Assembly: GCA_965204375.1 (NCBI GenBank) | Contig: OZ241986.1 | Location: 3,488,001-3,552,000 of the forward strand | Reading direction: 5' to 3' | Length of the DNA: 64,000 bases | DNA from: Candidatus Latescibacterota bacterium | GTDB lineage: Bacteria; Latescibacterota; UBA2968 | Part shown: piece after piece, positions 24,997 through 34,770 of the stretch | Position numbering within the stretch: the first letter of the stretch is position 1 | How the letters are laid out: each line of letters opens with the position of its first letter | The notes under the pieces: generated by a model | What the model was told of the DNA's origin: nothing | The model's input: only the letters and a program-made list of their open reading frames with translations | The model's database searches: none | Translations under genes and position numbers: made by a program

Positions 24997-25407
24997 AAAA
25001 CGCAAAAGGTTTGGAGGAGAGGCCAAAAATTTGAGTCATTGGGCAATTTCAGGTGTATGGACAGATATAAAATTCGAAAATGTTAAAGGAGAAAAACCAG
25101 TGCCAAATTTTGGAGCCAGTGCAGTAGTTGTCTCAGATGGGCAAGTTCTGCTCATTAAGCGGAGGGATGTCGAGGTCTGGGCATTGCCCGGTGGTGCAAT
25201 TGATTCAGGGGAATCGACAGCACAAGCAGCAGTACGCGAAGTCAAAGAGGAGACGGGAATCGACATCGACCTTGTGCGCCTGGTTGGTATATACTCAAGT
25301 CCAAACTGGCGCTCAGGCGGCGATCATGCGATCGTTTATGCGGCCATTCCGAAGAATGACAAGCCATTAGCTCAAGCGAACGAGGTTTTAGATGTTGGCT
25401 ATTTCAG
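24997..25407 (+). repeat. ~410-bp direct repeat, copy 1 (leader plus 5-prime part of NUDIX gene)
   Basis: Aligns by eye with 29576-29989 from AAAACGCAAAAGGTT to GGCTATTTCAG. Confidence 0.9.
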
Positions 25408-25657
25408 TCCGGATCAGTTGCCCGAACCGTTTACATGGTGGCATCATCGAAGAATCGCCGATGCCATGCGTGGGGTCACAGGCGTTTCTTGCGTACAGGA
25501 CAGAGTATGGACACTGGATCCAAACCTGAGTCGTCGAGAGATATACGACATGTTGACCCGTTCAGGTTTATCGCCCAGTGACTTCTATGAACAGTATTTC
25601 ACTGAAATAGGACAGATCGGTGAGAGAATCGACGTTGATGGCGTTTCAATTGGGTAA
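25100..25657 (+). CDS. NUDIX hydrolase
   Basis: Nudix box PGGAIDSGESTAQAAVREVKEETG; GTG start with AAAGGAG RBS. Confidence 0.92.
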   Translation: MPNFGASAVVVSDGQVLLIKRRDVEVWALPGGAIDSGESTAQAAVREVKEETGIDIDLVRLVGIYSSPNWRSGGDHAIVYAAIPKNDKPLAQANEVLDVGYFSPDQLPEPFTWWHHRRIADAMRGVTGVSCVQDRVWTLDPNLSRREIYDMLTRSGLSPSDFYEQYFTEIGQIGERIDVDGVSIG

Positions 25658-26057: not shown

Positions 26058-27182
26058 ATGTATGTGACCTACAAATATAAACTGTATAGCCGATGTGACC
26101 GCAATAAGTATCTCCATCGCGAGATTGACGCCTTTGCTGGTGTGTATAATCATTTCATCGCCTTGCACAAGCGATACTATCGGCGATTTAAGAAGTATCC
26201 AGGCAAGTACACACTGATAAAGCACCTGACAAAGCTGAAAAAGACCGTGCGATATTCTGCCTGGTGTCTCTTGCCATCCCAGGCATTGCAGAATGTGATC
26301 GAGCGCATAGACTTTGGGTATCAAAAATTCTTTGCCAAACAGAATAAGCGACCCCCCAAGTTCCGCTCTCAATACAGGTATCAGTCCTATACCTTGAAGC
26401 AAGCAGGTTATGAATTTCTTGATGGTAACAAAATCCGAATCAACTTTGGCATACGTGGCAAAACCAAGCGCGTCTTCAGATATCACAAAAGCAGAACATT
26501 TGATGTCGAAAGTGTCCAGACCGTTACGATCATTCGTGACCGTGTAGGCGATTTGTGGCTGTGTGTTGCTGTTAGGGCAGAACGTTTCAAGCTGGACATT
26601 GCCCAGACTGGTCAAACCGCAGGCTTTGACTTTGGCTTGAAAACATACTTGACAGCAAGTGACGGGACACAGATACAATCGCCATTGTTCTTCAATCGCA
26701 ATTTAAGAAGGGTCAAAAAGGCCAATCGCAATCTTTCCGGCAAGAAGAAGGGGAGCAACAACCGTCATAGAGCAAGAGTAAATCTTGCCAGAGTGCATAG
26801 GCGCGTGGCTAATCAGCGCAGGGACTATCACTGGCAACTTGCCTATCAACTGTGCAAAGAATATGACGTAATGTGCTTTGAAAAACTCAATATCAAAGCC
26901 ATGAAACAGTTGTGGGGAAGAAAAATTAGTGATCTGGGATTCTCAGACTTTTTGACTATTCTCAAGTATGTCGCAAAAAAGACAGGCAAGCATGTTATTC
27001 AAATCAAACAGGGGTTGCCATCGTCAAAGACTTGCTCTGCTTGCAACAATGTAAAAGAGAATCTTGAATTGCGAGAAAGAACATTCGTGTGTTGCGAATG
27101 TGGTCATAAAATAGATAGAGACCTCAACGCAGCGATAAATATTCACAGGTGGGGACGTCCACCTTTGGAGGAGGCAGCCTAA
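26058..27182 (+). CDS. tnpB: RNA-guided endonuclease TnpB
   Basis: TYKYKLY N-terminus; RuvC-I GFDFGLK, RuvC-II FEKLNI, Zn finger CSAC..CECG, RuvC-III DRDLNAAINI; D-E-D triad intact. Confidence 0.95.
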   Translation: MYVTYKYKLYSRCDRNKYLHREIDAFAGVYNHFIALHKRYYRRFKKYPGKYTLIKHLTKLKKTVRYSAWCLLPSQALQNVIERIDFGYQKFFAKQNKRPPKFRSQYRYQSYTLKQAGYEFLDGNKIRINFGIRGKTKRVFRYHKSRTFDVESVQTVTIIRDRVGDLWLCVAVRAERFKLDIAQTGQTAGFDFGLKTYLTASDGTQIQSPLFFNRNLRRVKKANRNLSGKKKGSNNRHRARVNLARVHRRVANQRRDYHWQLAYQLCKEYDVMCFEKLNIKAMKQLWGRKISDLGFSDFLTILKYVAKKTGKHVIQIKQGLPSSKTCSACNNVKENLELRERTFVCCECGHKIDRDLNAAINIHRWGRPPLEEAA

Positions 27183-29575: not shown

Positions 29576-29989
29576 AAAACGCAAAAGGTTCGGGGGAGAG
29601 GCCAAAAAATTTGAATCATTGGACAATTTCAGGTGTATGCAATAGATAGAAGACTCGAAAATATTAAAGGAGAAAAAATCAGTGCCAAATTTTGGAGCCA
29701 GTGCAGTCATTGTCTCAGACGGACAGATCCTGCTCATTAAGCGGAGGGATGTCGAGGTCTGGGCATTACCTGGTGGTGCAATCGATTCGGGTGAATCGAC
29801 AGCGCAAGCGGCGATACGCGAAGTCAAAGAAGAGACGGGAATCGACATCGACCTTGTGCGCATGGTTGGTATATACTCAAGCCCAAACTGGCGATCAGGC
29901 GGTGATCATGCGATCGTTTACGCGGCCATTCCGAAGAATGACAAACCAGTAGCTCAAGCGAAAGAGGTTTTAGATGTCGGCTATTTCAG
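29576..29989 (+). repeat. ~410-bp direct repeat, copy 2
   Basis: Matches 24997-25407. Confidence 0.9.
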
Positions 29990-30080
29990 CTACAATCAGG
30001 TCAAGCACCTTTCAAAATTGATCCTCTTCAATGAAGGAGACCGACATGTCTCATCCCATATATCGCGTGGTATTTTTTGA
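29682..30080 (+). pseudogene. 3-prime truncated duplicate NUDIX gene
   Basis: Near-identical to the 25100 protein up to DVGYFS, then unrelated read-through sequence. Confidence 0.8.
29990..30034 (+). pseudogene. C-terminal remnant of a DUF4160-like gene
   Basis: Reads LQSGQAPFKIDPLQ* directly before DUF2442, the usual partner of DUF4160. Confidence 0.65.
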
Positions 30081-30579: not shown

Positions 30580-31824
30580 ATGTATTCAAGATTCATTATG
30601 AGAACTCTGGGGAGTTTTTCAATTCTCTTTTTTTGTAATACACAAAATATAATGGGGAGTGAGTTGAATATCGCGGCGCAGATGGGAGATAGCACGAAAG
30701 TAAAAAACTTACTAAAAAAAGGCGTAGATATAAATGAACGAGATAACTTCGGACGAACAGCCCTCATCTATGCGGCTCTGAATGGCCATAATCGCATCAT
30801 AAACATTCTACTTGAATCTCATGCTGATATTCATGCCAAAGATCATTTCGAGCAAACAGCATTCATTGCAGCAGTCAATAGAGGACATGTGAACACCGCT
30901 GAAATTTTGCTCAAAAATGGGGCTAATTCATCGGCTCCCAATGGTGAGGGTGTACCTCCTGTACTTATAGCCCTGGGACGGGAAGACTTCGAAATGGTAG
31001 ATTTATTATTAAAGCATGGAATCGAAATCAATAGCATAGACGAAAGAGGAAGGACAGTTCTTCAGAGAATTATTGAATCAAATGACACAGAACTCGTGCA
31101 AACAGTTTTGAGACGCGGTGTAGATGAGAGATATATCGTACATCTGGCTGCTGGCGTGGGCGACACAACATTGTTAAAGACATTGTTAAAAAATAAAATA
31201 AATATCAATCAAAGGGATGCATTGAGAAGAACGCCTCTGCTATTCGCGCTATTATATGACCGCACGCAATGTGCTAAAATGCTATTGGACCAGGGTGCAG
31301 ACTTTTCGCTTAGCGAAATCAATATTATATACGAAAATGAAAGAACAGTTCTTCAGAAGATTATTGAATCAAATGATGCAGAACTCGTGCGAACAATCTT
31401 GAGACGTGGTGTAGATGAGAGATATATCTTACATTTGGCGGCTGGCGTGGGTGACACAACATTATTAAAGACACTGTTAAAAAACAAAATCGATATCAAT
31501 CAAAGGGATGCATTGAGAAGAACGCCTCTGCTATTTGCGCTATTATATGACCACACCCAATGTGCTGAAATGCTATTGGACCAGGGCGCAGACTACTTTT
31601 CGCTTGCCAATGATCAGGGCAAAACCCTACTCATGGTAGCTGCCGAACGAAGAAATATCGAAGGCTTGAAACTCCTTCTGGGTGCAGGAGCAAATATATT
31701 CGCACAAGACAATCGGGGTTGGACTGCTTTAACATACGCAGCATTTGGTAATCGTAACAGACAGAACCGGGATAAGTGCATAGAACTACTCAAATCCGTT
31801 ATGGAGGATAGAAGGATCAGGTAG
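30580..31824 (+). CDS. Ankyrin-repeat protein
   Basis: GRTALIYAA, HLAAGVGD..LL, GWTALTYAA repeats; start moved to ATG 30580 (AAGGAG RBS). Confidence 0.92.
   Translation: MYSRFIMRTLGSFSILFFCNTQNIMGSELNIAAQMGDSTKVKNLLKKGVDINERDNFGRTALIYAALNGHNRIINILLESHADIHAKDHFEQTAFIAAVNRGHVNTAEILLKNGANSSAPNGEGVPPVLIALGREDFEMVDLLLKHGIEINSIDERGRTVLQRIIESNDTELVQTVLRRGVDERYIVHLAAGVGDTTLLKTLLKNKININQRDALRRTPLLFALLYDRTQCAKMLLDQGADFSLSEINIIYENERTVLQKIIESNDAELVRTILRRGVDERYILHLAAGVGDTTLLKTLLKNKIDINQRDALRRTPLLFALLYDHTQCAEMLLDQGADYFSLANDQGKTLLMVAAERRNIEGLKLLLGAGANIFAQDNRGWTALTYAAFGNRNRQNRDKCIELLKSVMEDRRIR
31024..31605 (+). repeat. Intragenic tandem duplication, period 291 bp (97 aa)
   Basis: GAAATCAAT.. at 31024 and 31315; near-identical RTVLQ..LLDQGAD blocks. 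Confidence 0.9.
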
Positions 31825-31935
31825 GTGAACTCACTCAGATATGTGCAATGGTGGTGATCAATGACTGACATATCAAACCAGATAATGATAAGAACCATCA
31901 AAGCAGAAGGTCTGGAAGATTGTGCGCGTCTATAC

Positions 31936-32077
31936 GTCAACGACCACCGCCCGAGGCGGTGGCTTGTCCCTGACACCTCTCCTTGTGCAATACCCACTTG
32001 TTGGAGAGAAACGCAAATATCCGAGCAAGGGCATAGAAAGCCACTCTTGCGTATGTCGGGACTTCAGGGCAGTTGAC
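31936..32077 (-). ncRNA. Candidate OMEGA/reRNA scaffold
   Basis: Closed by a long-range GTCAAC/GTTGAC pair; internal stems CTCTCC/GGAGAG, ACGCAA/TTGCGT, CCCTGA/TCAGGG; strand uncertain. Confidence 0.55.
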
Positions 32078-32385
32078 AGCAGCGGGTTGCGACCGCAGGT
32101 TTGGGTGGTATGCCCCCTAACTGTGCCCCTCGAATCTGTCCAGTGCAAGACAGCAACCCATTGCACCGCACACCAGATAGACCCGCCTCTCCACTAACGT
32201 CACCAGAGAGGAGAAAAGACCTGTGTCCCACCGCCGAAACCGTTTGCTCCTCTACGAGAGTGCCTTTGGATGGACTATGACAAAAGTCTCTGAAATAATA
32301 CTCATACATCAGTAATGCTACAACCAAAAAACGGCACAGCCGATTGCCTCTTACCACGCCCAAAGGATGTGGCTTCCACTAACGA
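31936..32385 (-). mobile_element. Non-autonomous IS200/IS605 element (PATE-like) with no protein gene, retaining a probable guide-RNA scaffold
   Basis: Minus strand: target TCAC | left end with GAAG + hairpin CCACATCCTTTGGGCGTGG ... right end CAAG + hairpin CCACCGCCTCGGGCGGTGG + TTGAC; no TSD; exact excision restores the GNAT frame. Confidence 0.88.
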
Positions 32386-32838
32386 GTGAAGGTCTTCTTC
32401 GAATGGCCGTACGAGGAATCGTGGAATATTACCCAGGCTCACCACTACCTCAGCCGATTCTGTGAGTTTGATCCCGAGCATTGCCTCCTCGCCCTCGACA
32501 AAAATAAGGTAATTGGCGCGATGTTCGGATACTGCTATCCCTGGCAAGACCGAATCAACTACTACATGCAAGAACTTTTTGTCGATCCCGATCAAAGGCG
32601 GTCAGGCCACGGACGAAGACTGGTGCGTCATCTGCTCGACAAACTCGGAGAATCGGACGTATCCATGTCCCTGATCGCCAATGAGGCAACGCCAGCAGCC
32701 GCATTCTACGAGGAACTTGGACTGCGGCAGCACAGATACTACAAATTTTATTGCGGTACCATAAAACCGGGGGATTATGTAGTTGAGTAGCATGATCGCT
32801 CCTCCTTTCAGTTTCAATTTAGAAAATATGAATATTCA

Positions 32839-32867
32839 TTGACATTGTAAAAGGGATTCGATAGATT
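32839..32867 (+). promoter_or_regulatory. sigma70 promoter for the first IS passenger gene
   Basis: TTGACA-N17-TAGATT. Confidence 0.7.
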
Positions 32868-32975
32868 ATCAGCATCTGTCAAATTACTGATATTTTTGTC
32901 TTACATTACGAATATACGTTTTAGCCCTGACGGACAAACTCACGGAAGCCCTGACGGCATCCAAAGGAGAGTTCC

Positions 32976-33431
32976 ATGGATATACAGAGACTCATTAAAG
33001 AAGAGTACAAGGAGCATGAACCTTTCTATTGCAAGGAACACGCTTTGGCAATATCGAAAAGGAACGTACTCGAAAGAATTGTGCGCGAGCGTTCTGGAGA
33101 GCCTGAGGTAGTCCCCTCGATCTGGGATAACAAGCGGGCACCTACTCCGATTGTGGTGCCAGGGGGATCTGGTGGCGAAGCCATAGGTGTTGCTTTAGTC
33201 GCTTTGCTCATCGGCGGCGGCTATGCGCTATACAAATGGCTATCCAGTGACGATGCCCAAACGTCGTCCAATGACACTTCTGGCAACTCTGGTGCCCCTT
33301 CTGTGAATGAGCAACTCAACCGCATCGAGGAAAGGCTCGACGGACTCGACGCGAAACACGCCGACATTGAAAGGGCGCAAGATAGAGCGAAAGCCATCCT
33401 GGACCGCCTTAAAGTTCCCGAAGCGGCTTAA
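32976..33431 (+). CDS. Hypothetical single-TM, coiled-coil protein (IS passenger)
   Basis: AAAGGAG RBS; TM segment IGVALVALLIGGGYALYKWL; heptad-like C-terminus. Confidence 0.7.
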   Translation: MDIQRLIKEEYKEHEPFYCKEHALAISKRNVLERIVRERSGEPEVVPSIWDNKRAPTPIVVPGGSGGEAIGVALVALLIGGGYALYKWLSSDDAQTSSNDTSGNSGAPSVNEQLNRIEERLDGLDAKHADIERAQDRAKAILDRLKVPEAA

Positions 33432-33600
33432 CCATATTACATGAAAAAAGCCCTGGCGGTATCGAGTCAAACTGCTGATAGCATTAGAGCATTCAAGTTT
33501 GTCCGTCAGGGCCATGAGAGCTAATTTCCTGTCATAATTTTATGCCAGAAAAAGGGAGATTTCGCAACTAAAATACTGCCCACTTGGGCAGTAAAAACAC

Positions 33601-33785: not shown

Positions 33786-33804
33786 GAGAAAAGTGAGGTG
33801 TGCT

Positions 33805-34770
33805 ATGGCTACCAATGCCCCTGGCATGCATTTCCGTGAGGGCATGTCTCTGATTCAGTTGTTCCAGATGTTTCCTGATGATGAGGCTGCCGAGAAGTGG
33901 TTTGTTCACACGCGCTGGCCGGATGGGATGGCCTGTCCGCACTGTGGGAGTACGAATGTCAACGAAAAGGCCACACACCCTACGATGTCCTTCAGATGCC
34001 GAGAATGTGTCAAATACTTCTCGCCAAAGACGGGCACCATCATGGCACGATCTAAGCTCGGATACCAGATATGGCTTATTGCCATCTATCTCTACACCAC
34101 ACACCTTAAAGGCGTGTCCTCTATGAAGCTACACAGAGACCTCGACATCACACAGAGAACCGCCTGGTTCTTACTCCATCGCATCAGGCACGCCATGTCT
34201 GAGGAGGAACAGACCCTCTTTGAGGGCACAGTAGAAGTCGATGAGACGTATATCGGTGGGAAGGAAGGGAACAAACACGCCAAAGACAAACTGCGTACTG
34301 GCAGAGGCACAGCAGGCAAAGTCCCTGTGGCCGGTGTCAAGAACAGAGACACAAAGCAAGTGCAGGCAATCGTGATCGACGAGGCCGATGAGGACACGTT
34401 GAAAGTGTTTATTGAGGATACTGTGGCGCGTGGGGCCACTGTCTATACGGACGGCTCACACGTCTATAACAGTCTGGAGGGGTATGAACACGAAAAGGTG
34501 ATTCACTCGCGGGGCGAATACGTCCGGGGGGATGTGTGGACAAACGGCATCGAATCATTCTGGTCAGGGATCAAACGCGGCATTATGGGCGTGTACCACA
34601 AGATCAGCCCAAAGCACCTGTGGCGATATGTCACAGAGTTTGTGGCACGCCAGAACATGCGGATGCGAGACACCATCGACCAGATGACGCTCATTGTGCG
34701 GAGGTTCGAGGGAAAACGGCTAAGGTATGCAGACTTGACGGCACTGTATCCATCGCTGGAATTACGTTGA
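33805..34770 (+). CDS. IS1595-family DDE transposase
   Basis: RWPDG.CPHCGS..CREC zinc ribbon; VEVDETYIGG, VYTDG, TNGIESFW; GAGGTG RBS. Confidence 0.95.
   Translation: MATNAPGMHFREGMSLIQLFQMFPDDEAAEKWFVHTRWPDGMACPHCGSTNVNEKATHPTMSFRCRECVKYFSPKTGTIMARSKLGYQIWLIAIYLYTTHLKGVSSMKLHRDLDITQRTAWFLLHRIRHAMSEEEQTLFEGTVEVDETYIGGKEGNKHAKDKLRTGRGTAGKVPVAGVKNRDTKQVQAIVIDEADEDTLKVFIEDTVARGATVYTDGSHVYNSLEGYEHEKVIHSRGEYVRGDVWTNGIESFWSGIKRGIMGVYHKISPKHLWRYVTEFVARQNMRMRDTIDQMTLIVRRFEGKRLRYADLTALYPSLELR

Follow-up and report, generated by a model that had tools for sequence, protein, structure and literature searches.

The DNA analyzed here (the window) is a 64,000-nt stretch from the genome of a Candidatus Latescibacterota bacterium (assembly GCA_965204375.1, contig OZ241986.1, positions 3,488,001 to 3,552,000), in which a GNAT gene on the plus strand is interrupted by a 450-bp element. 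The gene is split after codon 25: the N-terminal frame runs on into foreign sequence past position 31935, and the C-terminal 134 residues, which match the Pfam family Acetyltransf_1 (E 1.7e-14), are encoded on the other side of the element. The junctions read ...GCGCGTCTATAC/GTCAACGACC...CTAACGA/GTGAAGGTC..., or at greater length ...TGTGCGCGTCTATAC/GTCAACGACCACCGCC...CCACTAACGA/GTGAAGGTCTTC..., where slashes mark element boundaries here and below. The insertion at a fixed pentanucleotide without target duplication, the subterminal hairpins without terminal inverted repeats, and the ends common to tnpB and tnpA elements of related genomes identified the sequence as an IS200/IS605 element of the PATE type. 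It is probably a gene-less, non-autonomous and orphaned mosaic of other elements, and a candidate stand-alone omegaRNA that would require, in trans, a TnpB of the F family, the nucleases encoded by elements that share its ends in related genomes.

Orthologs of the GNAT gene were found in 10 of 41 related genomes, this one included (C-terminal query, E<=1e-20), with identities of 79-92%. The nine other loci retrieved with the GNAT C-terminus, seven from the same genus and two from a sister family, were all contiguous exactly at the junction (...CGTCTATAC/GTGAAGGTC...) and read CARLY/VKVF or close variants. Relative to these empty sites, the insertion comprises exactly 450 bp and lacks a target duplication. 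The original prediction, made from the letters of the window alone, had proposed that precise removal of positions 31936-32385 restores CARLY/VKVFFEW without a duplication, and had set beforehand that homologous GNAT genes should be contiguous across the junction; both were borne out at 9/9 orthologous loci. The nucleotides GT are present on both sides of the junction, so the cut position is ambiguous by 2 nt. In the empty alleles, TTCAC is followed by the putative guide sequence GTATAGACGCGCACAATC. In run X5, one metagenome contig joins position 31935 to 32386, skipping exactly 450 bases, and in run X4 one contig carries an empty site with a diverged left flank; the contigs of both runs were placed at 90% likeness and represent related populations rather than minority reads of the source sample. 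The simplest reading of the present effect of the copy is a loss of the first 25 residues of the GNAT enzyme.

The element belongs to a family of miniatures with 13 copies, most of them complete or almost so, at 10 different sites in eight of the 41 related genomes (this genome included), and this number of sites implies mobility. Two of the sites are common to species pairs, one of these being the GNAT site. Two subfamilies with a likeness of about 65-69% were distinguished. Subfamily A includes the window copy and copies in G012 (96% identity) and G014 (94% identity), while subfamily B includes four copies in G016, three in G018 (one lacking a left end), and one each in G005, G010, and G007. 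By BLAST, subfamily B shares about 70% identity with the window copy; in the alignment the value is 64-69%. Every copy terminates in GGT(C/G/A)GTTGAC, and the flanks beyond are unrelated. The window copy has only 10 private substitutions relative to the other A copies, of which one breaks a predicted pair and none falls within the conserved 3' core. No open frame is conserved among eight miniature copies, the two longest minus-strand frames of the element have no Pfam match, and searches of the miniatures with the F-family TnpB by tblastn returned only short matches, the best of them on the reverse strand. The earlier description of a protein-less IS200/IS605 element was therefore upheld, both by this lack of a conserved frame and by the ends.

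A cross-species scan with a pattern of the right-end domain, which covered one genome per species of bacteria and archaea, returned eight stretches in four records, all titled as metagenome-assembled genomes of Candidatus Latescibacterota. Six of the eight, examined end to end, were miniatures, and four of these six repeat copies already counted. A scan of metagenome contigs with the core pattern of the miniature gave no matches. Judged from these sequences, the lineage appears confined to one Candidatus Latescibacterota genus. A parent element combining tnpB with the miniature interior was found neither among the 41 relatives nor, by the right-end pattern, among 53 genomes of the order, where the new right-end variants (L037-L041) had no tnpB upstream. 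As a separate observation, runs X4 and X5 contained subfamily A copies with several different flanks in other metagenome assemblies (from a sponge metagenome or from organisms given by codes); since the flanks differ, subfamily A is multi-copy elsewhere and single-copy in this genome.

Three relatives (G006, G014, and G005) contain matches to only the first 41 and last 46 bases of the element, spaced about 1.2 kb apart. The 1.25-kb elements so delimited contain a gene for a 383-aa protein, located on the strand corresponding to the minus strand of the window, and the matches of this protein to Cas12f1-like_TNB (E 2.6e-24) and OrfB_IS605 (E 2.8e-8) identify it as a TnpB. The miniature and the 1.25-kb elements have the left ~60 nt (86-92% identity) and the last 32-45 nt in common. 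TnpBs of this family, termed F, were found in 14 of 21 genomes of the genus (E<=1e-30), on elements F1, F2, and F3 of the TnpB-only (IS1341) type that have their ends or their 3' module in common with the miniature. The F1 proteins are 93-100% identical to the query TnpB; their elements carry the left and right hairpins of the miniature and target TTCAT. The F2 proteins are 84-89% identical to the query, and their elements have other hairpins and are preceded by TTCAC or TCAC at all six loci examined; the target motifs of both groups were deduced from the flanks. A hairpin identical to the left one of the miniature (CCACGTCC...) occurs in F1 elements and at both ends of a tnpA element, and in G006 a gene for a 144-aa Y1 transposase (Y1_Tnp, E 2.3e-41) is bracketed by a miniature-type left hairpin, CCACGTCCTTTGGGCGTGG. 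Matches to the Y1 transposase family PF01797 were present in 24 of the 41 relatives, including 13 of the 20 other genomes of the genus. Of the eight miniature-bearing genomes, five encode an F-family TnpB (G012, G014, G016, G005, and G018) and five have a PF01797 match (G012 weakly, G014, G016, G005, and G010). The proposed search for siblings and for elements with the same ends thus succeeded in other genomes of the genus, which hold sibling miniatures as well as tnpB and tnpA elements, and came back empty in this one.

Read on the minus strand, the left end of the element is TTCAC/TCGTTAGTG-GAAG-CCACATCC-TTT-GGGCGTGG and the right end is ...GGGA-CAAG-CCACCGCC-TCG-GGCGGTGG-TCGT-TGAC/GTATAGACG. 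The predicted subterminal hairpins were confirmed at both ends (Table 1), and terminal inverted repeats are absent by inspection (TCGTTAG... versus ...GTTGAC). TTCAC precedes 11 of the 12 copies having a left end, and ATCAC precedes the twelfth. A private G-to-A change in the window copy unpairs one position of the left hairpin. The right hairpin occurs in subfamily B in a compensated form, CCACCTGC/GCAGGTGG, and in F2 elements in further compensated forms. The top strand of the element lies on the lagging-strand template, as judged for this single copy by cumulative GC skew (origin near 5.24 Mb, terminus near 1.71 Mb), and the IS200/IS605 family prefers this orientation.

Table 1. Positions of the element, its parts and the interrupted gene within the window
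Feature	Positions	Strand	Remarks
Miniature IS200/IS605-type element, whole (450 bp)	31936..32385	-	Subfamily A; left end 32385, right end 31936
Interrupted GNAT gene, N-terminal 25 codons	31861..31935	+	Encodes MTDISNQIMIRTIKAEGLEDCARLY; ends CARLY
Interrupted GNAT gene, C-terminal 134 codons	32386..32790	+	Frame resumes VKVFFEW
Target or transposon-adjacent motif TTCAC (plus strand GTGAA)	32386..32390	-	Immediately 5' of left end
Left guide tetranucleotide (DNA), GAAG	32373..32376	-	Directly 5' of hairpin foot
Left-end subterminal hairpin, CCACATCC-TTT-GGGCGTGG	32354..32372	-	
Weak sigma-70-like promoter match, TTGTAG-17-TATTAT	32295..32323	-	8/12; consensus match only
Central hairpin, helix 10 of the consensus fold	32131..32185	-	98.6% of cells paired
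Longest and most conserved block	32057..32129	-	Differs little between A and B
Right-end RNA module closed by GTCAAC/GTTGAC	31936..32077	-	142 nt; candidate 3' scaffold of an omegaRNA
Exact inverted match to the final tnpB codons (IRARAL) of F elements	32019..32032	-	14 nt; 16 nt in subfamily B
Right guide tetranucleotide (DNA), CAAG	31963..31966	-	5' of right hairpin
Right-end subterminal hairpin, CCACCGCC-TCG-GGCGGTGG	31944..31962	-	
Flank that would act as RNA guide, GTATAGACGCGCACAATC	31918..31935	-	Position only

In elements of this family, the tetranucleotide at the cleavage site is recognized by a guide tetranucleotide located at the foot of the hairpin (10.1101/279083). The miniature carries GAAG and CAAG at the feet of its hairpins, with TCAC and TGAC (its last four bases, 31936-31939) at the respective cleavage sites, exactly where they had been predicted. 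The arrangement resembles that of IS608, whose corresponding tetramers are reportedly AAAG/TTAC and GAAT/TCAA, in placement; it differs in the sequences themselves and in that the pairing rule is not clean in the F1 and tnpA relatives. Specifically, the target is TTCAT in all three F1 elements, GAAA replaces GAAG in two of them, and ..AAC accompanies TTCAT in the third F1 copy as well as in the tnpA element. The tetramers of the window copy lie where the IS608-like logic proposed for the ends would place them; the covariation expected from it was seen in two of the three F1 copies and not in the tnpA element.

Lone hairpins of the sequence CCACGTCCTTTGGGCGTGG were also observed outside the window, at G000:C1:1147197-1147237 and at approximately 3585098-3585120. 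One of them is preceded by TTCATTGTAAAAAG, and both are followed by a T run and AC or AG. Each resembles a left and a right end of the IS200-like tnpA element (G006) fused together, and they could be solo remnants, REP-like units, or terminators.

The right-end module, predicted as a domain of 142 nt closed by GTCAAC and GTTGAC, does abut the right end. Its homologue in F2 elements is their untranslated 3' end (nhmmer E 1.7e-7, blastn E 4e-11), which reads AGTCTCGCC...stem-loop...GGCAGGGACAAGCC-hairpin-GTTGAC. An alignment from GTCAAC to GTTGAC of eight miniatures and four F2 ends revealed a common closing helix, 10-pair stem, inner hairpin, and right hairpin, with 12 of 40 pairs changing on both sides across both kinds of element. 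The closing arms are invariant in all 12 aligned elements, and the covariation therefore neither supports nor contradicts the closing helix. The miniatures carry an insert of 53-56 nt in this module relative to F2. From these comparisons, the 142-nt domain is best described as the right-end-proximal module of the RNA of a TnpB element, the place where an omegaRNA scaffold would end and its guide begin.

The interior as a whole also appears to be maintained as a structure, with conserved blocks alternating with variable, compensated stems. RNAalifold predicted 113 pairs from ten miniature copies. Standard pairs occupied 99.0% of the 1,127 alignment cells, compared with 39-47% when the partners were slid by one to three columns, and 17 of the 113 pairs changed on both sides, compared with one to six in the slid controls; the fold was derived from the same alignment as the covariation count, which inflates this contrast, and the covariation represents few independent lineages, perhaps four (A, core B, and two basal B copies). 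None of 500 column shuffles reached the observed pairing values. The central hairpin alone accounted for eight of the 17 doubly changed pairs, as eight of its 15 pairs differed on both sides between the subfamilies. Whole-element folds were no stabler than those of shuffled sequences (z -0.45 on the minus strand and -1.28 on the plus strand), so single-sequence energy was uninformative and the evidence for structure is comparative.

The fold also bears on the strand. Its 144 G.U cells assign it to the minus strand, in antisense orientation relative to the GNAT gene; if the plus strand is folded instead, they become C-A mismatches and pairing falls to 86%. The alternative raised at the outset, in which the element, taken on the plus strand, is an omegaRNA of the IscB/HEARO type with GTGA as its 3' motif, draws on the formal symmetry of the ends only. 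Besides the loss of pairing, it is contradicted by the end-sharing full-length elements, all of which carry tnpB on the minus strand, and by the Rfam scan, in which neither strand produced a match of this kind at E<=10 against a collection that presumably includes HEARO (the genome was not searched for iscB). It was abandoned as extremely improbable. An equally slight chance was assigned to a self-splicing or IStron-like intron that leaves the GNAT message functional. The location within a coding sequence and the high degree of structure would suit such an intron, yet the structured strand is antisense to the gene, the other copies lie at unrelated sites behind TTCAC, and the same scan returned no group I or group II intron (E<=10).

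Several observations weigh against a guide-RNA interpretation of the interior, including the two limits on the covariation given above. Nothing in the tnpB elements matches the approximately 250 nt that separate the 142-nt module from the left end. In tnpB elements the upstream part of the scaffold lies within the tnpB coding sequence. A forced alignment of the two upstream regions revealed no homology, and when the block preceding GTCAAC was aligned with the 3' coding region of tnpB, 27, 12, 63, and 70 of 300 shuffles reached the observed scores. Without significant similarity in this block, binding by an F-family TnpB is not assured. An Rfam scan of positions 31000-33500 on both strands (E<=10) found no guide-RNA family, and returned two chance-level matches, to rpfG (20.6 bits) and a cyanobacterial small RNA (17.3 bits), far below their gathering scores. 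A scan for promoters and terminators identified no minus-strand promoter and no terminator; the matches behind the left end are weak in the miniatures (8-9/12), with TTGCCG-17-TATATT in subfamily B (9/12) corresponding to the site of the window copy, and F1 has TTGACA-16-TATATT at a comparable position (11/12), all of them consensus matches only. In the RNA run X23, contigs were placed on the flanks only and none on the element, which is no evidence either way. Additionally, an F-family TnpB was not found in three of the eight miniature-bearing genomes (G000, G010, and G007, the last a draft of 280 contigs), and as the genome analyzed here, a single contig of 6.34 Mb, is 96% complete by marker genes, the partners sought in it count as not found rather than as proven absent.

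One further proposal concerned the words CGCAAC..GCTGCT before GTCAAC as a relic of a tnpB tail. This candidate was rejected, since its alignments were no better than chance. The related translation AAVNCPEV, which the original prediction had read as a tnpB tail, was likewise an accident of the frame: the alignments did not exceed shuffles and the open frames are not conserved.

An inverted match to tnpB was also observed. Within the right-end module, one stretch reproduces the final tnpB codons of F elements exactly in reverse-complement orientation (blastn-short 14/14 in subfamily A and 16/16 in subfamily B, E ~1e-4; 95% over 21 nt versus F2). It is invariant in subfamily B, one A copy keeps it through a G.U-compatible change, and it adjoins the palindromic tnpB codons GCTCGGA.ACA.TCCGAGC. 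The stretch may be left over from a rearrangement, or it may pair with the tnpB message as an antisense contact. It bears on a reading, which we consider unlikely, that the conserved interior is some other structured RNA or single-stranded DNA feature serving the element rather than a nuclease guide, for example a regulator or decoy that targets the F-family tnpB message in antisense through the complement of 14-16 nt, or a structure for TnpA-mediated mobilization. Such a role would agree with the upstream 250 nt having no counterpart in tnpB elements, with the 16/16-nt inverted match, and with the lack of a guide-RNA family in Rfam. Against it, the inverted match could reflect a rearrangement around the palindromic codons, and the final 142 nt correspond, in kind and in their position beside the right end, to the module of the tnpB elements that target TTCAC, at the point where an omegaRNA scaffold ends.

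We infer a putative guide-RNA function for the miniature, and favor the following explanation. The active (top) strand would correspond to the minus strand of the window, and the element would have entered as single-stranded DNA 3' of TTCAC through a Y1 TnpA acting in trans. In its parts the element is a mosaic: the left hairpin is of the type found in the IS200-like tnpA and F1 tnpB elements, the TTCAC target and 142-nt right-end module are of the F2 type, and the right hairpin is of the F1 type. Selection would act on a folded RNA, or a single strand, of the minus strand and so preserve the interior; in the simplest case this would be a stand-alone omegaRNA, transcribed and then loaded by an F-family TnpB in trans. 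With neither partner found here, this copy would be a nearly intact orphan that no longer moves and at present does no more than inactivate the GNAT gene. The initial proposal of an orphan guide RNA with the adjacent motif TCAC is thereby retained for the minus strand, for the motif (T)TCAC, and for the right-end module, which is homologous and co-varies with that of tnpB elements; it is weakened for the upstream scaffold, which is unlike tnpB.

The partners were sought throughout this genome. A second copy of the element was found neither by blastn with 7-letter words nor with an nhmmer profile, and the only blastn matches to the element were two hairpins of 22-23 nt. No match to the Y1 transposase family PF01797 was detected in the 6.34 Mb, and no F-family TnpB at E<=1e-30, the best tblastn match having 36% identity over about 200 aa. 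The genome does encode about 12 other TnpB homologues. Their elements, among them the 26-kb tnpB element of the window, have no DNA similarity to the miniature (blastn, nhmmer) and right ends that finish differently, in agreement with the prediction that the ends of the 26-kb element are distinct. The simplest reading is that the window copy was recently stranded, being immobile, not excisable, and without a nuclease to arm. In the absence of a detected Y1 TnpA and matching TnpB, neither cutting of the empty allele nor TnpA excision is to be expected at present, and the suggestions that a TnpB in trans could cut the empty allele and that excision would switch the GNAT gene back on do not apply to this genome.

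One might instead suppose that the RNA is a working guide here, loaded by one of the resident distant TnpBs and cutting the empty GNAT allele. The number of resident homologues, the resemblance of some of their right-end hairpins to those of F2, and the near-intact state of the copy would allow this. Nevertheless, the identity of these TnpBs to the F family does not exceed 36%, their elements have no sequence in common with the miniature and finish differently at the right end, and without TnpA no empty allele arises for cutting, which makes this explanation highly improbable.

Two resident TnpB families were also observed in their own right. The gene at 26058-27182 (plus strand) encodes a 374-aa TnpB (OrfB_IS605, Cas12f1-like_TNB), with two more copies in the genome at 78% protein identity. 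A second family has five copies, and its right hairpin is nearly identical to that of F2b in other species while its terminal sequence differs.

The GNAT site is occupied in a second species as well. In G016, a subfamily B copy (L011:1501-1929) lies at the identical TTCAC of the orthologous gene, which is also cut off 37 nt beyond the element. The flanks of the two species are 92-94% identical (93.8% over the 1.5-kb left flank), and that of G015, where the site is empty, is 93.2% identical to the flank in the window. The L011 copy showed 116 B-type and 13 A-type states at 136 diagnostic columns, and both copies at the GNAT site have the left-hairpin variant CCACATCC. With flanks about 94% alike and a likeness of only about 65-71% between the two elements, the pattern is not that of simple vertical descent. 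It calls either for a separate insertion into one of thousands of TTCAC sites or for an exchange of one element for the other at the donor joint.

A bolder and quite doubtful interpretation is that the family is not a decaying deletion product, and has evolved independently as a guide-RNA-only parasite of TnpB elements. Its left end, target motif, RNA module, and right hairpin may have been assembled from different tnpA and tnpB elements with a conserved structured domain of its own added, and the antisense match of 14-16 nt to the tnpB tail could capture or dampen the nuclease of the hosts. If so, the double occupancy of the GNAT site would represent directed re-occupation, by homing or by swapping at the donor joint, and not chance.

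Gene-less elements of this kind have precedents. A preprint by Meers et al. (10.1101/2023.03.14.532601) describes PATE-like IS200/IS605 elements without genes in Geobacillus stearothermophilus (ISGst families), which 'often encode' omegaRNAs requiring the TnpB of another element. The Latescibacterota miniature resembles them in having no protein gene, in having both ends in common with tnpB and tnpA elements, and in its presumed mobilization by TnpA in trans. In contrast to them, it belongs to another phylum and is unrelated in sequence, carries the 3'-module insert and the counterpart-less upstream region, combines the ends of two element types, and, in the window copy, has no partner in its genome. 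TnpB-only IS605 elements of the IS1341 type, such as ISDra2 (Karvelis et al., 2021, PMC8612924), share with the miniature a target motif 5' of the left end, a scaffold ending at the right end, and a guide taken from the flank. They differ in that the upstream scaffold of ISDra2-type elements is tnpB coding sequence, whereas the miniature is wholly without tnpB. The available portion of a review of OMEGA systems (PMC13565253) contains nothing on gene-less elements, and a full-text literature search found no paper pairing Latescibacter with TnpB. Gene-less IS605 relatives with guide RNAs are thus already described; the present element differs from them in detail, by the mosaic of ends, the remodelled scaffold, and the orphan status.

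The family provides a clean natural example of the proposed modularity of IS200/IS605 elements, with ends, target motif, guide-RNA module, and nuclease on separate elements, and it does so in a little-studied, uncultured phylum. The matched sets (miniatures A and B, tnpB elements with TTCAC or TTCAT, and the tnpA element) are suited to testing whether a remodelled scaffold programs TnpB in trans, and the doubly occupied GNAT site is a case for studying target choice. Within this genome the consequence is small: a stranded element has knocked out a GNAT gene that can be dispensed with.

Other features were noted in the window. Around the resident tnpB element at 26 kb, the plus-strand frames 25031-25657 and 29682-30080 share a long near-identical stretch (...PNFGASAV.VSDGQ.LLIKRRDVEVWALPGGAIDSGESTAQAA.REVKEETGIDIDLV...) and bracket a block in which the tnpB element lies together with HNH-like, PIN-like, and other frames, possibly a duplication around an inserted island. 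Upstream of the GNAT gene, an ankyrin-repeat gene contains a tandem duplication of about 290 bp (31023-31311 and 31314-31605, plus strand, 88-90% identity), which was also found in the orthologous loci. An IS1595-family (ISXO2-like) transposase gene (DDE_Tnp_IS1595, E 1.6e-38) lies 1 kb downstream of the GNAT gene at 33793-34770 on the plus strand.

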